Shown piece after piece: positions 338-11,764 of a stretch of 64,000 nucleotides of DNA. Every line of letters begins with the position of its first letter. Within the stretch, counting starts at the first letter, position 1. Source of the stretch: an uncultured virus (IMG/VR IMGVR_UViG_3300015608_000687) (lineage: Duplodnaviria; Heunggongvirae; Uroviricota; Caudoviricetes; Crassvirales); the IMG/VR virus record IMGVR_UViG_3300015608_000687; one strand, 5' to 3'. The notes under the pieces were generated by a model. It was not told where the DNA came from. It searched no databases and worked only from the letters and a program-made list of their open reading frames with translations. Both the position numbers and the translations under genes were made by a program.

Positions 338-448
338 TGTTTTGAAATTTATTCTTGAAAAAAACAGCAGTGGTTCCTTTTTTGTTACTCATTTTGTTTC
401 GTTTGTGTTGACAAATTGGGTTTGTTTGGGAGTTATAGCCAATAGCTA

Positions 449-841
449 TCATTTAGGGTCAACACCGACTTGTATGAAGTTAACACTTTCTGAATAATAG
501 CCGTTACTTTGACCAAACCAACGAATATCTACATAGCCTTTTATCGTTGCTAATTTGTAAAATGTCCACGTACAAGAACCCCATTCATTAGCTTCTTTTG
601 TTTTTTGTTTATCTTCCTCAGAAACTGGTTCATAATTTGAAACTTCTTCCGCTAACAAAATTGGATTTCCAATTAAATCTTCCAAGTCGCCATTAATATC
701 TTCAATGGAAACGCTTTCACAGCAATCTTGTTTGTGATACATTTTGTATTGAGTTCCATCGTCAACGATAAAAATCAATTTATCATCATTGTTTTTGATT
801 TCGGTAAGTGTTTTACCTACTAAGTCTTTGATTTCTGCCAT
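449..841 (-). CDS. conserved phage hypothetical protein (130 aa)
   Basis: Motifs HxQDCCE, TWTFY, SNGYYSE typical of a widespread phage DUF. Confidence 0.8.
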
Positions 842-852
842 TGTATTTGTTT

Positions 853-2760
853 TTAAAAAAGACTTAATTGATTGTTTTCTATTTCTCTTATTTCTTTATA
901 ACATTCTTTTATATACCAATCATAATTTATATCATAAGATTCTTTTTCAAAGAAATTGTTAAAAACAGTTATTTGATAACCCTTATGAATAAACTCTGAA
1001 GTTCCTTTATTGTAAAATTTCATTAAAGAAGAACCTTTGTTTGATATATAATACCTTACGTTTCTTTGTTGTCTTTCCTGCTTTTTATATGGAAGTCCCT
1101 TTTCATCATATAATAATGTAAAAGTCATTCCGTAATCCTCACCTCTGAATTTTTGTCTACCGCAAAAATCATAGATGTTTTTATGATTCTTTATACTTTC
1201 TTCAACAGGAATTTTATTAAAGAAGTAATTAGACAAAGCAATAGGGATTATTCTAAAACTATTATCTTTGTGATAAGCTGGCTCACTACCAACGACTTTA
1301 TCTATTTCAAATCTACCCTTATACTTATACTTACCATTAAACCCTAAAGCAGAATATGTGTTTACATCAGCAATAACCATTTTTTCATAATCTTGATATT
1401 CTAATACAAGATTTGTCTTTTTTTGCCAATCTTCACATATTTCGTAATAAAGCTTTTCATAAATTCTGGGTATTTTTATTTCAATACCATCAGTATTAAT
1501 CATAATCATTGTTGAATCAGGTATCTTATACAAAGATTCAGCAAGCATGGTTAATAACAATTGTCCATTTATTGTTATGGACATAGTGTATTTAGGGTCA
1601 TATAAAAAGCTGTTGACATCATTAGATTTGCCATATACGCTATTTAGAGCCAGTTTAAAGCCGTCAGACATAACACTGTCACCATTACTCTTGGCTAATA
1701 CACGAAGGTCTAATATCCTTTTATATACAGTGCAAAAAGATTCTCCCAGATGTTCTGGATATAATCTATTTACAACAGCCAAAGAAGGATATAGAGAAGC
1801 CACGTCACAAGATTTGATTATATATTCCGAATCTGATTTATAAACACCGCTTTTAATTGCTCCGTGTATTCCTCCAGAACCAAAATCATATTTAAAACCC
1901 TTATGTATAACTGATTCTTCAACAGCTCCTTTTGTTTCAACTATTACTTTTTGCTTATACTTATCAAGAAGTTTGTTAAAATCTGTTGAATCGAACTGTA
2001 TATAATCAAAGATGATATCCCCCAGATTAATAAAAGCACGATTAGTTCTTTGTTCTTTAACTTCCCAAAAGTCTTTGGCAGTTTCATTACAATAAAGTTT
2101 TAAAGTTAACTGCTCACCTATTTTTGAATCCGAAAAATTAATACATGGTAAGCCATATTGCTCTTTTATATTGTTTCTTAATTTTATCTTGTCAAGACTT
2201 TTCTTATAGAATTCATAAGTCGCTAAAACATCATTAAGATTGTATTTAAGAATCTGTTCTATTTCCTCTTCAGTTATTATCTCTTTTTTATGTGAAATAG
2301 GCATTTCCATAACATTTGGAAAATTCATGCTTATTTCAAGAGACTTTAAAGATGTTTGTCTTGCTTTATTGTTATAATGCCAGATTTTAAATAAATCTAT
2401 TTGTGGAATTATTACATCTTTTGTTCTTATTGCTACACTTTTATTGAAATCAACAGCATTTTGAACATTTATTATAGTTTCAGCTAATTCGTGTAAATCA
2501 AACAGTAATTGACTTGTTTCCTCGGTTTCCCAATAAAATTTGTCGAGAAATTTATGTAATACGGGATAATCAAAATTTACATTATTGAATCCTATCATAT
2601 TACCTTCAATTTCTCTAAGATAATGAAAAAGTCTTATTCTTTCATCTCTTTCTGGATGTATAACAAATTGTGTTATTTCTTCAGTTTCTATGTTAATATC
2701 AGTATATGTAAAACACCCCCTCAAAACCTCAATATCATATACTACACCATTCATTCTCAT
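853..2760 (-). CDS. polB: DNA polymerase family B, crAss-like
   Basis: Exo motifs [18 protein letters not shown]; polymerase motifs [22 protein letters not shown]. Confidence 0.93.
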
Positions 2761-3527: not shown

Positions 3528-4256
3528 TTAACTAATATTATTTGTCGGAGAAAATTTGCTTTTTCTCTTTTTTCCTGAAAATATTTTTGTAGGTCCGTCG
3601 TAATCTGCTTCGTCTGTTTTTATAGAAGTTCTATTTGGTTCTTTTGGAGGTACAAGAAAATCTGGTTTATTTTTATCAAAATCATAAATATATTCACGCA
3701 GTTCTTCAATAGATTTTCTTACTATTGGTATATCTGGTGCTTTATATTTTTCTATTTTTGTTTCAGTCGAATGAATAAAATTTGCTTTTTCGTCTGAAGT
3801 TAAACTTCTCCATATACCAGCATCGTCTTTAATTTCACCTTGGCTATTTAACAAATAATCATTCATTATAGTAAATCCCGATAATGGATACACACAAGTT
3901 TTTGTTGCTACGATAAGAGGTTCAGTGACACTATATGTAACGTTTGCTTTTGGAGATGCTAATTCGACGGGAATTCCTGCATTTATAAATTGTTTACTAA
4001 TACCAGGTTCATCCAAAAGATTGGATACTCTGTGATAAATAACATTTATTTTACTCCAATACACATGACCTTCGGAAGTTAAACCCCAATTAAAAGATTT
4101 ATCTATAAAATCTTTACTTTTTACAGCATTGCTTTTTAAAAAAGCAATTGCGTCTGGTTTTAATGCAAAAACATTTCTAAAATAATTTGTGCGTACTGGT
4201 TCTGGTATAAATATTGGAAACTTATTAATTACTTCTTGTTGTTCTTTTGTAAACAT
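3528..4256 (-). CDS. hypothetical protein (242 aa)
   Basis: ORF track; FNWGLTSEGHVYWS motif. Confidence 0.75.
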   Translation of the reverse strand: MFTKEQQEVINKFPIFIPEPVRTNYFRNVFALKPDAIAFLKSNAVKSKDFIDKSFNWGLTSEGHVYWSKINVIYHRVSNLLDEPGISKQFINAGIPVELASPKANVTYSVTEPLIVATKTCVYPLSGFTIMNDYLLNSQGEIKDDAGIWRSLTSDEKANFIHSTETKIEKYKAPDIPIVRKSIEELREYIYDFDKNKPDFLVPPKEPNRTSIKTDEADYDGPTKIFSGKKRKSKFSPTNNIS

Positions 4257-4279
4257 GATGTTATTATTTTTATTGTTAG

Positions 4280-4364
4280 TACTCCAAGCAGGAATCGAAC
4301 CTGCACGACCTCAATGGTCAAAGGTTTTTAAGACCTTTTTGTCTACCAGTTTCAACATTGGAGC
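4280..4364 (-). tRNA. tRNA-Leu(UAA)
   Basis: Acceptor GCTCCAA/TTGGAGT, anticodon arm AAGGT-CTTAAAA-ACCTT, long variable arm, T-loop GGTTCGATTCC; CCA not encoded. Confidence 0.93.
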
Positions 4365-4380
4365 ATCCTTGTTTTAAGGT

Positions 4381-4563
4381 TTAATTAAAATGCAATTCTG
4401 ATTTTTCATAGTTATTCGGAGTAACTATTGCTTTTGCGGTAATTGCTACTTTGTCAGCAATTTCTTTTTGAGTTAGTCTGTTACCTTTTTCATTCAAAAC
4501 AAATGAATGATGAAGATTAAGTCTTTGAGTGGTATTGTCTTTACAGAATATGATAAGTTGCAT
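4381..4563 (-). CDS. hypothetical protein (60 aa)
   Basis: ORF track, co-oriented with neighbours. Confidence 0.6.
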   Translation of the reverse strand: MQLIIFCKDNTTQRLNLHHSFVLNEKGNRLTQKEIADKVAITAKAIVTPNNYEKSELHFN

Positions 4564-4574
4564 AGTTATAATTT

Positions 4575-4606
4575 AAACAAGAGACAGGGTTTTACCCCCG
4601 TCTCTT
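4575..4606 (-). terminator. intrinsic terminator-like hairpin
   Basis: Minus strand AAGAGACGGGG-GTAAAA-CCCTGTCTCTT then GTTT. Confidence 0.6.
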
Positions 4607-4623
4607 TATTAATTGGTTAATGA

Positions 4624-5115
4624 TTAGTTAACACCTTCAGTTTCAGCAACAGGAGTAGTAACCTGAGAAGGTTCTACTTCAGCAGTATGAGAAATGAAAG
4701 AATCAACAGCTTCTTTCAAAACCAAACGGCTGTTGCGATAAATGGGACGACCATCTACAACAAGAACTCGGTTAGTCTGAGGGTTGATTTTAGGTTGTTG
4801 ACGACCAGCACTACCATCAGCATTAGTCCAAGTACGAGCAACCAAAGATTCCTCGATTTGGATATTTGCTTGCGGAATACCCATCTTTTCAGCAATGTCA
4901 TCGCCTACGGCAAATTGTTTCTCTGCCATAATTTTAGCTGATACTGTCTGCCAAGCAGTACGCTTTTGTACAGGTGAATTAATGCCAGTATGTCCTTCCA
5001 TGAACACACCTACGGTATTGTCAAGATTCACTACATCTTGAGTAAGAGTCAATTGATAAGCACCGTTAGCAATTTGCTTAACTTCAGTTACGATAACTTT
5101 TCCTTTTTTGAACAT
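4624..5115 (-). CDS. conserved crAss-like hypothetical protein, possibly ssDNA-binding
   Basis: PKINPQT...GRPIYR motif, beta-rich with acidic tail; function is inference. Confidence 0.7.
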   Translation of the reverse strand: MFKKGKVIVTEVKQIANGAYQLTLTQDVVNLDNTVGVFMEGHTGINSPVQKRTAWQTVSAKIMAEKQFAVGDDIAEKMGIPQANIQIEESLVARTWTNADGSAGRQQPKINPQTNRVLVVDGRPIYRNSRLVLKEAVDSFISHTAEVEPSQVTTPVAETEGVN

Positions 5116-5191
5116 TTTGTAATTGTTTTTAGTTGTTTAATTAGGTTTACTATTTGGTTTAATCTACAATAGTTGCGCACCTATTGTATTG

Positions 5192-5522
5192 TGGAGGTAA
5201 GGGGAATCGAACCCCTGTCCAATAGAATAAAAATTAATGGTTGACAGGCTTAAGGGCTGACAGGGTATTGTCAACGTCCACCACTGATTTTAGTGTGAAA
5301 ATCAGAACACAACTCTTACAGATTCTTTTCCAAGGTTCTGTAAAAACCCGACTCATTACTGATTAAGCAGCAACCAGAAGTTCTTCTTGACGAACAACTT
5401 CTTGAGTAGGAACCATACAAATTACTTTGCCAGTTACTTGTTTTTTGTAGTTTATTAAGGAAATTCTACCAATTTCCGCCTGAGCATTAACTTTCATAAT
5501 ACTGTCAAATCCAGTTACCCCC
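5192..5522 (-). ncRNA. ssrA: tmRNA; tag (A)GKVICMVPTQEVVRQEELLVAA*
   Basis: 5' GGGGGTAACTGGATTTGAC; 3' GGACAGGGGTTCGATTCCCCTTACCTCCA; acceptor GGGGGTA/TACCTCC with G3:U; P2 pairing; tag frame 5431-5363 ends LVAA-TAA. Confidence 0.93.
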
Positions 5523-5527
5523 AATTG

Positions 5528-5601
5528 TAGTCATGCTAGGAATTGAACCTAGGACCTGCAAGGTATAAGCTTGCTGCTCTAACCAACTGAGCTACATGAC
5601 T
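5528..5601 (-). tRNA. tRNA-Ile(UAU)
   Basis: Acceptor AGTCATG/CATGACT, anticodon arm GCAAG-CTTATAC-CTTGC, T-arm CTAGG-TTCAATT-CCTAG. Confidence 0.92.
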
Positions 5602-5603
5602 GT

Positions 5604-5635
5604 AAAAAGAGGATGTGATAATTTACACCCTCTTT
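5604..5635 (-). terminator. terminator-like or processing hairpin just 5' of tRNA-Ile
   Basis: Minus strand AAAGAGGGTGT-AAATTATC-ACATCCTCTTTTT. Confidence 0.5.
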
Positions 5636-5658
5636 CAAACACGACATGCAAAAGTTTA

Positions 5659-5940
5659 TTAAATGTTATCTTTTAAAAACATTTCAGCATTTGAAAATTG
5701 TTTAAAAACAGAATCAATCAAACCTTTGCGATATTGTTGCTCCAGTTTAATTGCTTTCAACCAATCCTCACGGGTGTACCCATTGATGAGAATTAGTTTT
5801 GTATTTTTCCTAATGTAGTCTCTGATGTTCATAATATGTTCATCAGATAGCATTTTTAATTGTACAGGTCTGTTACCAGTCAACCAACACATTTTACTAC
5901 GAAGGGAATAATGAGATTCAGAAGGGCTTTTTTGATTCAT
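5659..5940 (-). CDS. hypothetical protein (93 aa; likely start MNQKS)
   Basis: ORF track frame; start shortened because a separate ORF occupies 5918-6088. Confidence 0.65.
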   Translation of the reverse strand: MNQKSPSESHYSLRSKMCWLTGNRPVQLKMLSDEHIMNIRDYIRKNTKLILINGYTREDWLKAIKLEQQYRKGLIDSVFKQFSNAEMFLKDNI

Positions 5941-6088
5941 AGATGTAGGTTTTATTGTATTCAAAATTTTCTTCTTTGTTTTCTTTCTCTTTTGTCTTAT
6001 TGATTTTAGGAATTGGTGTAAGCAATCCTGAAACAATAAAAACAAATAGTAAAAACAAGGCTAGTGAAAGAATCAGAGCTGTAAACAT
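5918..6088 (-). CDS. small single-pass membrane protein (56 aa, not in ORF track)
   Basis: Hand translation MFTALILSLALFLLFVFIVSGLLTPIPK...KKPF*. Confidence 0.6.
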   Translation of the reverse strand: MFTALILSLALFLLFVFIVSGLLTPIPKINKTKEKENKEENFEYNKTYIYESKKPF

Positions 6089-6109
6089 GGCTTTTTAATT
6101 TAAGGTTTG

Positions 6110-6184
6110 CTCTTCCGACAGGAGTCGAACCTGTAACCTACAGCTTAGAAGGCTGTTGCTGCTATCCAATTGAGCTACGGAAGA
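6110..6184 (-). tRNA. tRNA-Arg(UCU)
   Basis: Acceptor TCTTCCG/CGGAAGA, anticodon arm ACAGC-CTTCTAA-GCTGT, T-arm ACAGG-TTCGACT-CCTGT. Confidence 0.92.
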
Positions 6185-6193
6185 ATTTAATTA

Positions 6194-6334
6194 TCAAGCT
6201 ATTAACACTTCTTTATCATCTACAAAAACAGAATTGTTTCCGTATTTTTTAGCTCTGATAATAGCAAAATCCATATTTGGAGTGTAAAGCTTGTGACCTA
6301 TGTTGTTTTTGTAAGAATATGTTTTTTCTTTCAT
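6194..6334 (-). CDS. small hypothetical protein (46 aa, not in ORF track)
   Basis: Hand translation MKEKTYSYKNNIGHKLYTPNMDFAIIRA... Confidence 0.5.
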   Translation of the reverse strand: MKEKTYSYKNNIGHKLYTPNMDFAIIRAKKYGNNSVFVDDKEVLIA

Positions 6335-6424
6335 ACAGTAATATTGATGATTTTTTGAGTTTTGTATATTTGACTGATTAGTTTTTCTTCTCTCACAAAT
6401 CTGCTTGCAGCATGTCCCATATCT

Positions 6425-6652
6425 TTAAAGGCTTGTTGCTGCGGAGTCAACTTTTTCTTCTTGTTTGACATATTGATAATGTGTTATTTCTTTAGAATCT
6501 ATCAGTTGATAACGCTCATCATAATAATTACTTCCCTTTCTAAAAGCTAATCTGTGACGAAAAGGTTTTCCATCAATCATTACACAACTATAGAATATCT
6601 TTTCTTCTTCAGGTTTATGCTCTTTAATAGAAATCCATTTGTTTTCTGCCAT
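6425..6652 (-). CDS. DUF551-like small phage protein
   Basis: WISIKEHKP ... ITHYQ pattern. Confidence 0.65.
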   Translation of the reverse strand: MAENKWISIKEHKPEEEKIFYSCVMIDGKPFRHRLAFRKGSNYYDERYQLIDSKEITHYQYVKQEEKVDSAATSL

Positions 6653-6724
6653 GTCTTATGTTTTTATATAAGCAGAGGTTAAATAAAATTTTAAATAACC
6701 CCTGCTCTGTTAAATAAGAAAGTG

Positions 6725-6895
6725 CTAGTTCATACCCGTTAAACCTTTAAATAGAACTCCCTCCCCCTTTTGTTTCTCTTTCTTATTATTTCTTTTTTTT
6801 GCATTAAATCTTTTACGTTTTTTAGCAGCTCCGTTTTGTGCAGCACAAGATTGTTTCTTATGCTTTTTAGGATGATATTCAGCCTTAGTTGTCAT
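6725..6895 (-). CDS. small highly basic protein (56 aa, not in ORF track)
   Basis: Hand translation MTTKAEYHPKKHKKQ...AKKRKRFNAKKRNNKKEKQKG...; about one third Lys/Arg. Confidence 0.5.
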   Translation of the reverse strand: MTTKAEYHPKKHKKQSCAAQNGAAKKRKRFNAKKRNNKKEKQKGEGVLFKGLTGMN

Positions 6896-7080
6896 ATGAT
6901 TTTTGATTTAATAATAAAACACAAGTAAAGCTGGATTTTTATAAGCGTAATTCTTCCGGCTTGACCATTTTTTATCAGAGTGCTTGACCGGATGTCTTTT
7001 CAAACAATAATGTTTTACTAAGTGCTACGGGATTTGACGTCTTGAAAAAATAGCCCCACGCTATCTCTACTTGTGTTTTA

Positions 7081-7371
7081 TTAATTCTTAAATATTGTAA
7101 AATAAGGACCTTCTTCTGTTATTTGTTCAATAAATTCTGATAAAACAATGTTTTCACAATATGTTTTAAATACTTGTTTTACAACTTCATCTGAAACATT
7201 TTGTGTTGAAAAAACTGTTCCATAACAATCTTTGTCACTTACGGAGGGTTCAATATAGTTAGATAAAGCTTCTTGTTTTGTATCAAATTCAGCTTTTTCT
7301 CTAATACTTACTTCTCCTATTGAATTTTTTGTAATTGGTGCATAACAATAATAAAGATAAAATTTAAACAT
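7081..7371 (-). CDS. hypothetical protein (96 aa)
   Basis: ORF track. Confidence 0.65.
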   Translation of the reverse strand: MFKFYLYYCYAPITKNSIGEVSIREKAEFDTKQEALSNYIEPSVSDKDCYGTVFSTQNVSDEVVKQVFKTYCENIVLSEFIEQITEEGPYFTIFKN

Positions 7372-7454
7372 TATTTTGCTTACTTTTAATAATTAAAGTT
7401 TCTTATTCAATTAATGTTAATAAATCCATTGGTTTTATTTTACTTTGAATTTAA

Positions 7455-8900
7455 GTAATAAATACAAGCGTGTTCAACCTTAATAACTTTGTTAAAATAT
7501 CTCCCAATATCCATGAAGTTCGCATAGTTAGGTCTTAACATTTGGACTCCAAATCAGATTAGGTTTGCAAAGTGTTTAACAACATAAGTCCCCTCTTTAA
7601 ACCATTAGGTACTTGTATTTTCAATAACTTCCTCACTTTAACGAGAAGTTTTACACCATGCTCTCAGTAATTACTCTGATTACATTCTATCTCAAAGTGA
7701 GGCAAAAACCATAGGTGTGATATGATTTTACTTGTCATTGGTAATCACTCCAGCCGCACAATGTTGTCTAGTTGATTAAATCAACGGAGATAAACTTTTT
7801 CAACAACTACTACAACAATATTACTATTGTTGAGGCATAACATTCAAACTGTATTACTACAGAACACAAGCGTATTATTAGGATTAGTGTTTTTATTTTT
7901 TCCTATTTATGCTGCCACCACATACTTTACTTAGATTATATACTATGAAGTACGGCTGCTACAACAGGGATTTCAACCTGCTCGTACCGTAAGGTCTGAA
8001 GCCTTCAACCAGTTAAGGTTCAAATAGTATTTTCAAGTATGCTTTACAATTCTCTACCAACGTCAGGTTTTTATCCTAAGTGGAAAGCTCATTACCTCAA
8101 AGCTTTTGGTATGAATTATTAAAGTAACCACCCAAGCCAATAGTGGTTTGCCCAAGAAGCCATTCGATTAAGAATGCGGGATTTATGCGAGACCTGCCTA
8201 TATAGTCTATACCGCACTTTAAATCCTTACCACTAAAACTTGGTATGGATATAGGACTTTTAATATGCGTAGGTTCTGGCAAACCTACGGGCATAGCCCA
8301 CTGTGTGTCCAGCACAGTTGGGAAACTTGTCTAAAATGTAGGTTGTTAGCGCAGCTATATTATTAGCACATTAATATACTGTCACCCAATAAATTTCATG
8401 TGTAAGATTTGAACTTACCTCAGTTAATTAAACTGATACCAAATGAACAATTCATTTATTGTTAACAACACTACATTTTTACTAAAACCTTTTGATATAC
8501 TAGAACAGTCCTCTAGTTTATGGTTCTTTAGAATTTAATCACACTTGTCCATATCAAAAGTAACCAGCTATAAGAAAAACAACTACTTAGGGTCTAAGTC
8601 CCATTCTTAACCCAAACTAAACACATCTTAGAACTGTGTTGTAACCATTGTCTTAGGTGGAAATTAGACCATACTTAAACCACCTGCGTCGTCTTATTTG
8701 TTACTGTTTAGTGTTAATCAGTAGTTGTTTTAGTAGTTGAGACTGACCCCTTATTGACCTTTGGGTATTCACGCCGTATTTTGTTATTTTAATAAAATAA
8801 ACAACCAATTTCCACTTTAGGTTGCTAACTCATATACAGCAAAAATTCCAATCTTACTGCATACTTGGGTCATGTGTTGGACCACATGGCGGAAACTTTT
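7455..8900 (-). ncRNA. putative cluster of structured non-coding RNAs
   Basis: No credible ORF; many nested inverted repeats (see findings); strand inferred from flanking genes. Confidence 0.55.
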
Positions 8901-8905
8901 AAATT

Positions 8906-9256
8906 TTACTTTGCAGATTCAAAGAATTCAACTTTTTTTATTGTTCCGTCCAAATAATGAATAAAACAATTATGTTGAAAAAGGTCTTTTTCTACATTTT
9001 CTACAGGTTCACCACAAATTGAAGGAACATCCGAACCACTTGATTCAAAAGCTGGGTGCCATCTGTCACCACAACAGGGGCAATCATACCCATTTTCGCA
9101 GCCGTAGAAATATAGTCCAATTTCTTCAGCTCGGGCGTTAGCTTGACCTGCGTTTGCTGCCTCTATGATGACATATTCGCAAATACCATCTTTTTCAGAG
9201 ATAGTAAAAGAACCGCCTGAATTGTTTTGTGAGTATGTATAGAATTTTGTTGTCAT
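8906..9256 (-). CDS. conserved phage protein with CPCCGDRW motif
   Basis: FYTYSQNNSGG and DCPCCGDRW motifs of a widespread phage DUF. Confidence 0.8.
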   Translation of the reverse strand: MTTKFYTYSQNNSGGSFTISEKDGICEYVIIEAANAGQANARAEEIGLYFYGCENGYDCPCCGDRWHPAFESSGSDVPSICGEPVENVEKDLFQHNCFIHYLDGTIKKVEFFESAK

Positions 9257-9409
9257 GAGTTTGTGTTTTATATGTTAAGGTATGAAACTTAATTGCTAAT
9301 TACAACAGCTTTATAGTAGTGAATAAAGTCAGTGCTTGTATCGCTACTAAGAGTTTCATGGTTTTAGTGTTTTTATAGTGTTAAGGCTATATTATTGTCC
9401 AATTTAAAG

Positions 9410-10072
9410 AAATTACAGGGCTAAAACTTTCAGCTAAAACACCCTGTAATTTGACTCGCTGACTAACCCATTGAAAATCAGCTTTTTAGTTAGTAAATTT
9501 GTTTCTTTTTTTGTTGTCTTAGTTGCGAATTCAAGACTTTAATCTGAAAGTTATTCCGAAACTTTACTCACCTTTATTTTCAACAATATAAATTACACAC
9601 AGAGAGATGATATCATCATGGTTTTAATCAAAGTCTGTAATTAACCTTTTAATTAACCTCTCTCCTGTGTAATTCATTGTGTATTAACCAATTGAAAACA
9701 ATAAGCAGTTTTTAGTCATGCTTAGGACTGAGTATTCTATTAGAGCTATCAGAATCAAGCTCTAAAACAAATACTCAATAAACTACACAAGAGAATATGC
9801 TTTGTTACATACTCTCTTGTGTAATTCATTAAAGTAGAGGCTTTGCCACTGCAATTAAGCTAGTATCCTCTTTAGGGTGATGTTTAAAACAGGATAACCC
9901 AATCAACCTGTGGATACAAAGAACGTCATTGGGTTTTTAAATCCTTGTAACGCCGGATTATGCGTCTAATCTACAGCCTGCTGTAAACTAGATATAGCAC
10001 CCATAGGCACTAATTAAGACTATTTAAAGTCCCAATCAGCACCTACAGGTACTACATTACCGTAGACAACGG
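9410..10072 (-). ncRNA. series of long RNA hairpins and a small pseudoknot
   Basis: Stems pair fully, with G:U, only on the minus strand (e.g. 9781-9826, 9992-10057). Confidence 0.6.
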
Positions 10073-10106
10073 CAAACATATTAAACAATAAACTGATACT
10101 AGCCCC

Positions 10107-10346
10107 TTATGGGACCAGTACCAGTTGTTTTGCAATTCCCTTTTCAGTTTCAATCTCTTTGGTTGAGACGCTGCTAAGCATTACTTCAGCAGTTTCACCA
10201 ACAGCAGAGTTTTCGTCAACCCAGCACCAACCCTGCTGAGATTGGGTTACAAAGCCTGTTTTGTGTGTTGCACGCACTTTAGCAAGCTTGTTGTTAGTTG
10301 CGTGCTTTTCGATGATTTCGAGGACGAATTTGATTTTGTTTTGCAT
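10107..10346 (-). CDS. hypothetical protein, first gene of minus-strand arm (79 aa)
   Basis: ORF track. Confidence 0.7.
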   Translation of the reverse strand: MQNKIKFVLEIIEKHATNNKLAKVRATHKTGFVTQSQQGWCWVDENSAVGETAEVMLSSVSTKEIETEKGIAKQLVLVP

Positions 10347-10615
10347 TTTGCGTTTGATTTTGATGCCACGGGTAGTTCCAATGGCACTAGATTAGGGGGA
10401 GGGGTCTAAGACACAGGTCTAATTTTTTACTTATAAAAATTCAAAAAAAAAAAATTAAAAAATCTAATAACTTTTGTACCTAGAATGAAGATTTTGAAAA
10501 AGAATATTCCCAAAGTAGTACTTATAAGAAGAATTTCGCTTCATTTTAACAACAGATTTAGTACATTTTTACATAACTTCTTGATTATCAGAGAAAAATA
10601 ATTTTCATCAAAGTA

Positions 10616-10646
10616 TTGACAAATGGGTTTTGATGTATTATATTTG
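10616..10646 (+). promoter_or_regulatory. Bacteroidota sigma-A-type promoter
   Basis: TTG(10616)-N20-TATATTTG(10639) matches -33 TTG / -7 TAnnTTTG; ATG 5 nt downstream. Confidence 0.75.
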
Positions 10647-10651
10647 TCCTC

Positions 10652-10855
10652 ATGGAAAAAGTTCAATCTCTCGTTAGACACATTCTTACTGCTGTTGGCG
10701 GTATGTGTGTTATGTTTGGTGTTTTAGACCATGAAGTAGTATCCGGTTTAATTGGTGGTGTTGCTACTATCATTGGTATTGCTTGGGGACAATTTAATGC
10801 TGTTAAAAGCAACATTAAACCTCCGAAATTCCCTGATAATTTACCCTCTGTTTAA
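10652..10855 (+). CDS. small two-TM membrane protein, holin-like
   Basis: LVRHILTAVGG motif and two hydrophobic segments. Confidence 0.7.
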   Translation: MEKVQSLVRHILTAVGGMCVMFGVLDHEVVSGLIGGVATIIGIAWGQFNAVKSNIKPPKFPDNLPSV

Positions 10856-10868
10856 GGGGGTAAATTAT
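10836..10868 (+). terminator. hairpin over stop codon (terminator or processing site)
   Basis: ATAATTTACCCTC...GGGGGTAAATTAT stem; no strong U-tract. Confidence 0.45.
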
Positions 10869-10869
10869 T

Positions 10870-11114
10870 AATACACTCTTTAGCTTATTGTGACACGTTG
10901 CAACTTTCGTTAAATCCAATAAGTTTCGAGTGGGGGCAGTAAATCATCAAATAGATGTGAGGAACCCTGTAAAATCAAGCTTCAATGCTTCCGAATACGG
11001 CGAATAAATGTGGGTATAGCCCGGAAGAGACAGGAACCCGACTTTGAAGCAAGATTAACAACATGAAGCCTTAAAAAGGGATACAAAATATCCCTTCTTA
11101 GGACAAAGTGTGTT
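10870..11114 (+). ncRNA. candidate multi-helix structured RNA (~245 nt)
   Basis: Closing stem plus four or more internal helices, G:U pairs on the plus strand. Confidence 0.5.
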
Positions 11115-11152
11115 TAATACTTAAATAGTTGAAATAATAATAAGTTAATATA

Positions 11153-11764
11153 ATGGATAACATAACAAGATTTATAGCAGATTTAAAAGCTTCTTGTAAG
11201 AGGAATAAAATCTCTTTAAGTTTTGTTGAAAAACCTTTTATAAAATTATCTGATAATATAGACTGTGCTGGCTATTTTAGTGAAGATGAAGCTTTACTGG
11301 TTGTGGCCACACAAAGACCTGACTGGTTAGAAATATTGGTGCATGAGAGTTGTCATATGGACCAATATGAAGACTATAACAACGGAAAGAGTCATATCTG
11401 GGGCTTATCTCAGTCTATAAGTTTTGTTGATGAATGGCTTGGGGGTACTGATTATCCAATAAAAGCAGTTTATAAGCACATAAACAACAGTCGGGATTTA
11501 GAAGAAGATTGTGAAAGAAGGTCTGTAGTTAAAATACAACAATACAATCTTCCAATAGATGTAAAAGAATACACACAAAAAGCAAACGCTTATCTGTTCT
11601 TTTACAACTATATCAAACAAACAAGATATTGGCCTGATAGTAACAACTCTGTTATTCGTAATGAAAAGGTTTACAAAAGGCTTATGAAGACCTTTTATAA
11701 AAGTTACAACAAGACTCCAACCAGAATACTTAGAATCTTTGAAGAAAATGTCAAAAGAGCTTGA
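11153..11764 (+). CDS. zincin-like metallopeptidase-domain protein
   Basis: HExxH (ILVHESCHMDQ) with downstream LEEDCE. Confidence 0.7.
   Translation: MDNITRFIADLKASCKRNKISLSFVEKPFIKLSDNIDCAGYFSEDEALLVVATQRPDWLEILVHESCHMDQYEDYNNGKSHIWGLSQSISFVDEWLGGTDYPIKAVYKHINNSRDLEEDCERRSVVKIQQYNLPIDVKEYTQKANAYLFFYNYIKQTRYWPDSNNSVIRNEKVYKRLMKTFYKSYNKTPTRILRIFEENVKRA

Follow-up and report, generated by a model that had tools for sequence, protein, structure and literature searches.

We analysed a stretch of 64,000 nucleotides (nt) from an uncultured virus assigned to the Crassvirales (IMG/VR record IMGVR_UViG_3300015608_000687), hereafter the window, and within it a sparsely coding segment at 6900-10100. 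On the minus strand, positions 10126-6906 hold an island of RNA genes broken by two small protein genes (Table 1). The island comprises an RNA of about 840 nt that we call BR, three shorter RNAs (M_b, M2 and M_a) and a series of hairpins. The window derives from a distant crAss-like phage. Phage families were recognised in three of its proteins, the large terminase, the portal and the major head protein, and the best matches of the terminase among 50,697 phage records are crAss-like phages with at most 44% identity. Genes are oriented on the minus strand left of about 10,350 and on the plus strand right of about 11,150. At 4279-6184 the minus arm further encodes tRNA-Leu, a transfer-messenger RNA (tmRNA), tRNA-Ile and tRNA-Arg (ARAGORN/Rfam), all on the same strand as the island; they lie 1.5-3.5 kb downstream.

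Only three open reading frames (ORFs) of at least 60 amino acids (aa) were found within 6900-10100, all on the minus strand, and the two credible ones occupy 642 of 3201 nt. About 80% of the segment is thus non-coding, and the estimate of an original prediction, made from the sequence alone, that about 2.5 kb of these 3.2 kb are non-coding was confirmed. Reading TAG as Q or TGA as W (table 4) opened nothing convincing in this segment, the longest recoded frames being 95 aa (plus strand, 7827-8114, 2 read-through codons) and 102 aa (minus strand, 7559-7867, 4 read-through codons). Several ORFs of 30-50 aa are also present. For the 96-aa ORF a relative was not found in viral contigs. ARAGORN and the Rfam tRNA and tmRNA models detected no tRNA or tmRNA in 6900-10100, and ARAGORN with its intron and mitochondrial options returned 0 bacterial-type genes and 4 low-grade mitochondrial-type calls.

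The large RNA BR and its family

The first clue to BR came from a blastn comparison of the region with phage records, which returned a single genome, that of Lbo-JY46, a cultured phage of Leptolyngbya. Five colinear blocks, each 29-50 nt long and 92-100% identical, were matched, and the spacers between them were unrelated. In the Lbo-JY46 record BR occupies about 8440-8930 and M2 about 9340-9530. With pattern scans and a profile search the family grew to 23 contigs: the window, Lbo-JY46, 9 further IMG/VR contigs, 9 metagenome contigs, 2 contigs from metagenome-assembled genomes (MAGs) labelled Candidatus Saccharibacteria, and one diverged member (L140). One of the pattern scans gave 88 loci, mostly by chance, and one match of another (L009) was false. 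When 185,579 prokaryote species, each represented by one genome, were scanned for the pattern, only the two MAG contigs, which are phage-like, were found.

The conserved core of the family measures about 300 nt. In it the 5' box pairs with block A (helix H1) and block A with block B (helix H2); the other elements are a four-way junction bearing hairpin 2, the GUAA-capped hairpin and hairpin 3, and a 3' hairpin. Blocks A-D are invariant, while around the core there are a variable 5' domain, of which three unrelated kinds were seen, variable hairpin tips and optional insertions. Two such insertions, ins1 and ins2, are present in the window at positions where other BR members read ...AGUAAUAAUUCAUACC... 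unbroken. The second one, a G+C-richer module, is missing from an RNA-library contig that joins 8119 to 8332. This skip of 212 nt, with 4 nt common at the joint, restores the continuous sequence of the family and is most simply explained as a strain difference or indel.

Support for a conserved RNA structure came from covariation. In a MAFFT alignment of 17 sequences, the 45 pairs of 6 helices were paired in 93.1% of cells, versus 30-57% when slid, with 20 pairs changed on both sides, and 0 of 500 shuffles reached the observed values. The two subtypes of the family retain all 7 pairs of H2, with both partners differing in 6 of these. RNAalifold, given no imposed structure, recovered H2, H4, H5 and H6 and added an invariant GCA:UGC helix closing the four-way junction. 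A covariance model built from the 3' part of 14 sequences found all 6 held-out members, namely L129, L131, L121, L059 and L130 at 88-116 bits and the diverged L140 at 59.5 bits (E 2e-10). In the 3' hairpin 4 of 4 pairs were compensated on the model-fitted alignment, which itself leans towards structure. Indels are confined to hairpin tips. A weak match of the BR model in another locus (L103, 24 bits) was rejected as a false positive, being a protein-coding stretch without the GUAA hairpin.

These results change the picture of 13 distinct small RNAs that had been drawn for the island. Six of the proposed modules (8489-8560, 8333-8479, about 8125-8325, 7878-8079, part of about 7625-7800, and spacers) turned out to be domains or insertions of the one RNA BR. 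Closing stems were recovered at 6912-7083, 7460-7620, 8125-8325, 8333-8479, 8489-8560 and 8576-8731 and for five hairpins within 9410-10057, whereas about 7625-7800 and 7878-8079 are pieces of one larger RNA plus linker and not units. A sixth hairpin (10126-10091) had been missing from the list.

Table 1. Features of the island and its surroundings in the window
Feature	Position	Strand	Basis or remark
BR, one multi-domain RNA of ~840 nt	8573-7732	minus	comparative alignment
BR 5' domain	8573-8479	minus	comparative alignment
BR optional insertion ins1	8479-8333	minus	counterpart at identical site in L140
BR strain-variable insertion ins2	8331-8120	minus	absent from one RNA-library contig
BR 5' box	8122-8106	minus	alignment
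BR block A	8061-8027	minus	alignment
BR hairpin 1	8026-7948	minus	alignment
BR block B	7947-7911	minus	alignment
BR hairpin 2	7910-7841	minus	alignment
BR block C with GUAA-capped hairpin	7840-7802	minus	alignment
BR hairpin 3	7801-7768	minus	alignment
BR block D and 3' hairpin	7767-7732	minus	alignment
Window-specific linker, two hairpins	7731-7622	minus	place taken in relatives by tRNAs, a tRNA-like element or a small ORF
M_b, ~164 nt; closing stem P1 8731-8720 with 8587-8576, then U-run	8737-8574	minus	alignment
M2, rod-like RNA closed by AAAUACAAG/CUUGUAUUU and a U-run	7621-7452	minus	comparative
M_a, module of 177-186 nt; 19-bp closing stem 7083-7065 with 6930-6912	7091-6906	minus	folding; orphan
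16-bp hairpin and T-rich tail directly after 79-aa ORF 10346-10107, terminator-like	10126-10091	minus	terminator-like scan
30-bp hairpin, several G:U pairs	10057-9992	minus	free energy ~-42; z -10.6 minus vs -3.6 plus; RNA-library cover
23-bp hairpin, stem base begins AAUUACACAAGAGAG	9829-9778	minus	z -10.7 minus vs -6.1 plus
Hairpin	9779-9727	minus	z -5.1
Stem-closed module, AAUUACACAGGAGAG stem base	9676-9589	minus	folding; tip replaced in strain variant
12-bp hairpin, AAUUACAGGG stem base	9452-9410	minus	z -4.7
Protein gene, 96 aa, without family	7081-7371	minus	ORF scan
Protein gene, 116 aa, DUF7296, interspersed in island	8906-9256	minus	ORF and family scan
Doubtful ORF, 72 aa, GTG start, no family match, inside conserved BR	8097-8315	minus	ORF scan
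tmRNA, directly adjoining tRNA-Ile	5189-5522	minus	Rfam 92.7 bits vs gathering score 47

Shorter RNAs and hairpins of the island

M_b was found in 12 contigs, often inside phage tRNA arrays. It folds into a three-way junction (P2, P3, P4) above its closing stem P1, with a possible pseudoknot in which the loop UUCUAAG would pair with an invariant CUUAGA that precedes the 3' arm of P1; both sides of it are constant. Ten sequences were aligned, after dropping one cut by a contig end (L135) and one identical to another (L138, identical to L133). Helices P1-P4 were paired in 96.2% of cells versus 33-45% when slid, with 17 compensated pairs and 0 of 500 shuffles reaching these values, and RNAalifold agreed with 19 of 38 pairs compensated. 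Here too indels are limited to hairpin tips, and P1 is followed by a U-run in 9 of the 10 aligned sequences. Relative to BR, M_b is located upstream in the window and L127 but downstream in L126 and L128, and in the L010 contig the two are far apart. Because its order relative to BR varies in this way, we treat M_b as a separate unit.

The rod-like M2 has invariant internal-loop sequences, near-invariant flanks and a variable tip. It occurs in 8 contigs, Lbo-JY46 as well as the window among them, on the same strand and downstream of BR in 7; the eighth is cut by the contig end. M_a begins at the stop codon of the 96-aa ORF, and the closing stems of M_a and M2 are likewise followed by a T-run. 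A search with the M_a pattern GGTCAAGC...GGTCAAGC gave more than 119 unspecific matches, none of them alike. The sequence AAAAUACAAGU or AAAACACAAGU recurs at the 5' edge of M2 (7621), of M_a (7082), of BR in L130 (about 1313) and of a tRNA-like element in L007 (about 1325, oriented).

Upstream of M_b the island consists mainly of strong hairpins. Three of those between 9826 and 9410 have the stem base AAUUACA(C/G)(A/G)(A/G)G in common, each followed by AAUUU or AGUUU, which suggests a possible common recognition or processing signal. In one strain variant (X16) the module at 9589-9676 shows a joint from 9607 to 9659 with 118 other letters. It had been predicted that imperfect stems mostly resolve as G:U pairs on the minus strand. 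This was upheld for the hairpins, for which the minimum free energies on the minus and plus strands are -42.2/-13.9, -26.3/-18.5, -19.0/-15.8, -23.1/-18.6 and -16.1/-11.4 kcal/mol, and recurrent U:G pairs in the family alignments agree with the minus strand. Beyond the hairpin zone, a divergent promoter-like pair at 10595-10666 is followed by a hydrophobic ORF of 67 aa (10652-10855, plus strand) backed by a strong hairpin and about 270 nt of non-coding DNA (within 10584-11150), and RNA-library contigs cover 10677-11068. A promoter consensus scan gave 21 sites versus 19.2 in shuffles, not above chance.

Thermodynamic folding was less telling. Among the 13 modules of the original prediction, compared with shuffles on the minus strand, 8 reached z values of -3.3 or below and 5 remained above -2, in a test that is biased since the modules had been preselected for stems. 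An unbiased sliding scan with windows of 150 nt gave a mean z of -1.52 for non-coding DNA (24% of 34 windows below -2) and -1.10 for coding controls (24% of 49 windows below -2), and only 9676-10125 stood out (z -3.9 to -10.5). The scan shows no general excess, and the strongest support for structure comes from comparison and not from thermodynamics.

Carriers, neighbourhood and RNA libraries

The island RNAs recur in different combinations and orders among phages that share little else. The large terminases of BR carriers are 27-39% identical, or undetectable in one complete genome of 175 kb. One of the two Saccharibacteria-labelled MAG contigs (86 kb) encodes a crAss-type terminase 39% identical to that of the window and is therefore a phage contig. 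It had been proposed to look for the region in homologous Crassvirales, but relatives of BR occur in otherwise unrelated phages: 21 loci with a related DNA polymerase (32-60% identity) gave 0 true BR matches and no nucleotide similarity to 4000-11200 except a match of 47 nt outside the finding. Among 68 neighbouring ORFs of 24 loci there was no shared partner, only scattered matches such as an HD domain, a weak 2H-phosphoesterase and T5orf172. The terminase gene of L264/L265 (G001:C46:56317-59286), on a crAss-like phage contig from a MAG labelled Candidatus Saccharibacteria, is a single open frame of 1019 aa; some 360 aa are inserted between residues 152 and 174 of the query, which looks like an intein.

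Genes for tRNAs or tmRNA lie within about 1-1.5 kb in 5 of 20 BR loci (L004, L005 and L017 by ARAGORN, L059 and L126 by Rfam) and, for M_b, in 4 of the 8 loci that the viral scan gave. An array of 12 tRNAs in L134 has M_b between its tRNA-Gly and tRNA-Ile. A tRNA begins 6-7 nt after the 3' hairpin of BR in L005 and L017, and tmRNA genes adjoin BR or M_b also in L005, L137 and partly L132. In 22 of the 23 copies BR is intergenic with no split gene seen. In the remaining one, L121, BR starts without the usual 5' domain where the ORF of a T4-type large terminase (610-1128, minus strand) breaks off. This ORF encodes 172 aa and matches only positions 2-106 of 215 of the Terminase_6N profile, and the contig ends before a possible second exon.

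Several further features were observed at the relatives' loci. The ARAGORN tRNA of L005 (1203-1279, minus strand), 6 nt past BR, has a four-base anticodon (tcga) in a loop of 8 nt, and at the end of L017 there is a T-arm and acceptor sequence similar to that of the L005 tRNA. In L059 a tRNA match spread over 118 nt (437-554, minus strand) may contain an insertion, and an ORF of 220 aa directly after BR (727-1389, minus strand) has a weak match to 2H/cyclic phosphodiesterases (22.1 bits versus a cut-off of 21). Between BR and M2 of L140 (oriented 955-1025) we noted an acceptor-like stem and a GGUUCGAUUCC T-arm, for which ARAGORN was negative.

DNA of the window was found in metagenomes from wastewater, activated sludge and digesters, sampled in 7 studies (X1-X11, X13, X14). 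Six runs recorded as RNA, from 4 further studies (P5, P8, P9, P10), contain part of it, one of them (X12) being flagged as probably DNA. The RNA data are assembled metatranscriptome contigs, related strains included, and show presence only. Runs X17 and X18, both from one study, have contigs over the tmRNA, BR at 7902-8106, M_a, M_b and the hairpin zone; stretches not covered in them (e.g. 7204-7737, 8272-8538, 10141-10674) were left out as evidence. The tmRNA, at depths of 32 and 96, had the deepest cover of any part in two short-insert RNA libraries, and the BR contig at 7902-8106 had a depth of 49.9, with a relative's hairpin beyond. Contigs of M_a and M_b close upon themselves, at 7082 to 6906 and 7091 to 6906 for M_a and at 8737 to 8574 for M_b, for which 8732 is also joined to 8612 through 37 other letters. 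These junctions coincide with the base of the closing stems. The end-joined contigs, of 207, 216 and 194 nt, are each 30 nt longer than the corresponding circle (177, 186 and 164 nt), as for a k-mer of 31, which fits circular or permuted molecules. The prediction had small RNAs being processed from the whole cassette; at least M_a and M_b appear as discrete RNA-library contigs ending at the bases of their closing stems.

Interpretation and comparison with known RNAs

The reading that we favour, at a probability of roughly one half, is that of an island of stable RNA genes travelling with tRNA and tmRNA genes, in which BR is an RNA of the GOLLD/ROOL type. The modules would then act as stable RNAs themselves rather than as leader sequences for the two ORFs. 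Every short RNA would have as its frame a long-range closing stem flanked 5' by an A-run and 3' by a U-run, and this stem may set the 3' end in a terminator-like manner and bring both ends together for joining. BR might be a functional analogue of GOLLD and ROOL, i.e. an abundant, self-contained RNA machine or scaffold. Because its unpaired sequences are invariant in phages of very different hosts, its partner should be universal, and tRNA, the ribosome or other copies of BR itself would be candidates. The hairpins at 10126-9410 could serve as processing, stabilising or terminating elements of the leftward transcript.

Several observations weigh against this reading. The analogy of BR to GOLLD and ROOL would draw on setting and architecture only, and in 15 of 20 BR loci there is no tRNA or tmRNA gene in the 1-1.5 kb examined, so that the adjacency is modest. 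Much of the BR covariation stems from one split into two subtypes, so that independent events are fewer than cells. Folding z-scores do not separate the region as a whole from coding DNA in the sliding scan, and the folding energies of BR, M2 and M_b are not better than those of shuffles (z -0.5 to -1.8). The helices of M2, though plausible, never vary and hence are without covariation support. M_a is without relatives: homologues were not found, and its blastn matches (E around 2) are noise. M_b directly adjoins BR and leaves no space for a promoter, so that a single long precursor is favoured above separate genes. The RNA contigs give neither strand, level nor true ends, and the end-joined forms, from two runs of one study, fit equally well with stem-aided artefacts of library ligation or reverse transcription or with tandem DNA copies in a relative. 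Finally, BR follows a truncated terminase gene in L121, a position more in keeping with a mobile or intron-like element than with a gene standing on its own.

This last observation leads to an alternative in which BR is a mobile self-splicing or self-processing ribozyme of a new intron-like class and the circles of M_a and M_b are by-products of RNA-catalysed cleavage and ligation. It would suit this view that BR is scattered over unrelated phages and its core blocks are near-identical there, that the array of Lbo-JY46 contains an extra ORF, that M_a and M_b give end-joined contigs and that a homing-endonuclease-type T5orf172 gene adjoins M_b in L132. However, no Rfam intron or ribozyme model matched (E <= 10 for the window, E <= 1 and E <= 0.1 for 22 relatives' loci), BR is otherwise intergenic, the L121 contig ends before any second exon, and the 212-nt skip resembles a strain indel, with no terminal G in any of 5 possible registers and thus no group-I-like ends. 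We give this alternative only a slim chance. A more elaborate scheme, a mobile kit of cooperating BR, M_b, M2 and M_a in which the short RNAs are circularised and BR is a ribozyme or self-assembling particle, maybe self-splicing, that pairs with M_b, seems to us similarly improbable. The pairing is suggested by complementarity of invariant BR AGUAGUUGUU to M_b AACAACUACU and of BR UCUAAG to M_b CUUAGA. By eye, the 5' arm of M_b is complementary to the BR motif in 5 contigs with both RNAs, G:U allowed, and drifts in 4 of 6 contigs without a known BR.

Alternatively, the elements might work exclusively in cis, providing the leftward early transcript with intrinsic terminators, with processing sites of the RNase III type or with 3' stabilisers of small-ORF mRNAs. 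A stem and then a U-run ends every short module, M_a and the 10126-10091 hairpin sit directly at the ends of ORFs, and the hairpins at 10057-9410, three of which share a stem base, are long, near-perfect and strand-specific like processing sites. Yet BR, M_b and M2, unlike terminators, keep invariant unpaired sequences and multi-helix junctions beside differing genes and shift their order, and M_b stands in tRNA arrays with no upstream ORF. Furthermore, a terminator consensus scan gave 3 sites versus 2.6 in shuffles, no excess, and the module stems are A+U-rich and long-range. A purely cis-acting role is unlikely in our view. We judge it about as doubtful that the RNAs are decoys or anti-defence RNAs, as had originally been proposed; they might, for instance, lure anticodon nucleases by resembling tRNAs or sequester RNA-binding defence proteins of the host. 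Their co-location with phage tRNA and tmRNA genes, T-loop-like and anticodon-arm-like hairpins seen by eye in the variable hairpins and ins1, and the position near the start of one genome arm beside a divergent promoter-like region would be in line with such a function. On the other hand, 6900-10100 holds no recognisable tRNA, as stated above, and the invariance of the unpaired BR blocks across phages of Cyanobacteria and presumably Bacteroidota argues for a universal partner and not a lineage-specific defence protein. Conservation at the level of DNA (an origin, a packaging site or a recombination hot spot) or coding for microproteins is very improbable. Near-identical short blocks could be protein-binding DNA sites, and short ORFs do exist, but the compensatory changes include G:U pairs workable on one strand only, indels are restricted to hairpin tips, RNA-library contigs cover the modules, the 72-aa ORF is without a family match, and other genetic codes open at most 102 aa.

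BR, M_b and M2 appear, as judged from sequence comparison, to be previously undescribed RNA families, with BR probably a new family of a known kind. The original prediction of an RNA-gene island on the minus strand belonging to no described family thus stood: a search of Rfam 15, which includes GOLLD, returned no family for BR, M_b, M2 or M_a, whether in the window (E <= 10), in the loci of 8 relatives (E <= 1) or in 14 more (E <= 0.1), and the hairpins were without a match as well. The only Rfam matches in 6900-10100 at E <= 10, mir-450 (23.9 bits versus a gathering score of 60) and MIR5512 (19.5 versus 139), were far below threshold and were rejected; models of introns and self-cleaving ribozymes (hammerhead, twister, pistol, hatchet, hepatitis delta virus-like) gave no match there. 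In the literature, neither a description of a BR-like family nor a paper mentioning Lbo-JY46 was found. Six of the IMG/VR contig identifiers are absent from the searched supplements of a survey of 10,006 phage RNA candidates (PMC10690425), in whose other files BR may be listed. The presence of BR and M2 in the cyanophage Lbo-JY46, the one carrier found that is in culture, makes their function a question that can be addressed at the bench. M_b is a conserved non-tRNA member of phage tRNA arrays and, together with phage tmRNA, suggests that the translation-linked RNA repertoire of phages is wider than tRNAs. The end-joined forms, if they are true circles, would be small circular RNAs encoded by a DNA phage.

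Early phage transcripts, as in the early region of T7, contain processing hairpins for RNase III and intrinsic terminators. The island resembles them in its long, near-perfect, strand-specific hairpins between short early genes and in stems followed by U-runs, but the stems of M_a, M_b and M2 enclose 100-200 nt of conserved structure and the terminator scan showed no enrichment. With group I introns BR has in common a conserved core, variable peripheral hairpins, optional ORFs, a spread among unrelated phages and one copy abutting a broken terminase. It differs from them in that no Rfam match, no pair of exons and no pseudoknot of the P3/P7 type was found and in that all copies but one of the 23 are intergenic. 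Small circular RNAs of metatranscriptomes, viroid-like ones included, are comparable to M_a and M_b, whose contigs are self-closing and would fold as stem-closed rods; M_a and M_b differ in being encoded in a DNA phage, in their size of 164-186 nt and in matching no known self-cleaving ribozyme.

The closest parallels to BR are GOLLD and ROOL, the only two known classes of giant phage RNAs near tRNA islands, which were recently shown to build RNA-only cages and are without known function. ROOL (rumen-originating, ornate, large) is an abundant phage or prophage RNA with RNA-only assembly and no known protein partner, and BR was likewise abundant in one RNA library. It is set apart from ROOL by the lack of any sequence or model match and by the habitat of the window, which is wastewater and sludge. 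In BR a conserved self-complementary loop was not found by eye. Two invariant BR motifs are absent from the GOLLD (env-38), ROOL (env-120) and OLE sequences printed in the supplement of PMC12286853. GOLLD further differs from BR in its helices, and the BR core comprises only about 300 nt. The likeness to GOLLD would thus be one of architecture and not of homology: GOLLD is encoded by phages and prophages, often near tRNA islands, while BR is phage-borne near tRNA and tmRNA genes, combines an invariant 3' core with three kinds of 5' domain in a length of about 840 nt here, and has tRNA or tRNA-like elements right behind it. If true, a third class of giant phage RNA, unrelated to GOLLD and ROOL, would mark such RNAs as a recurrent phage invention and offer a new comparison for asking what giant phage RNAs do.

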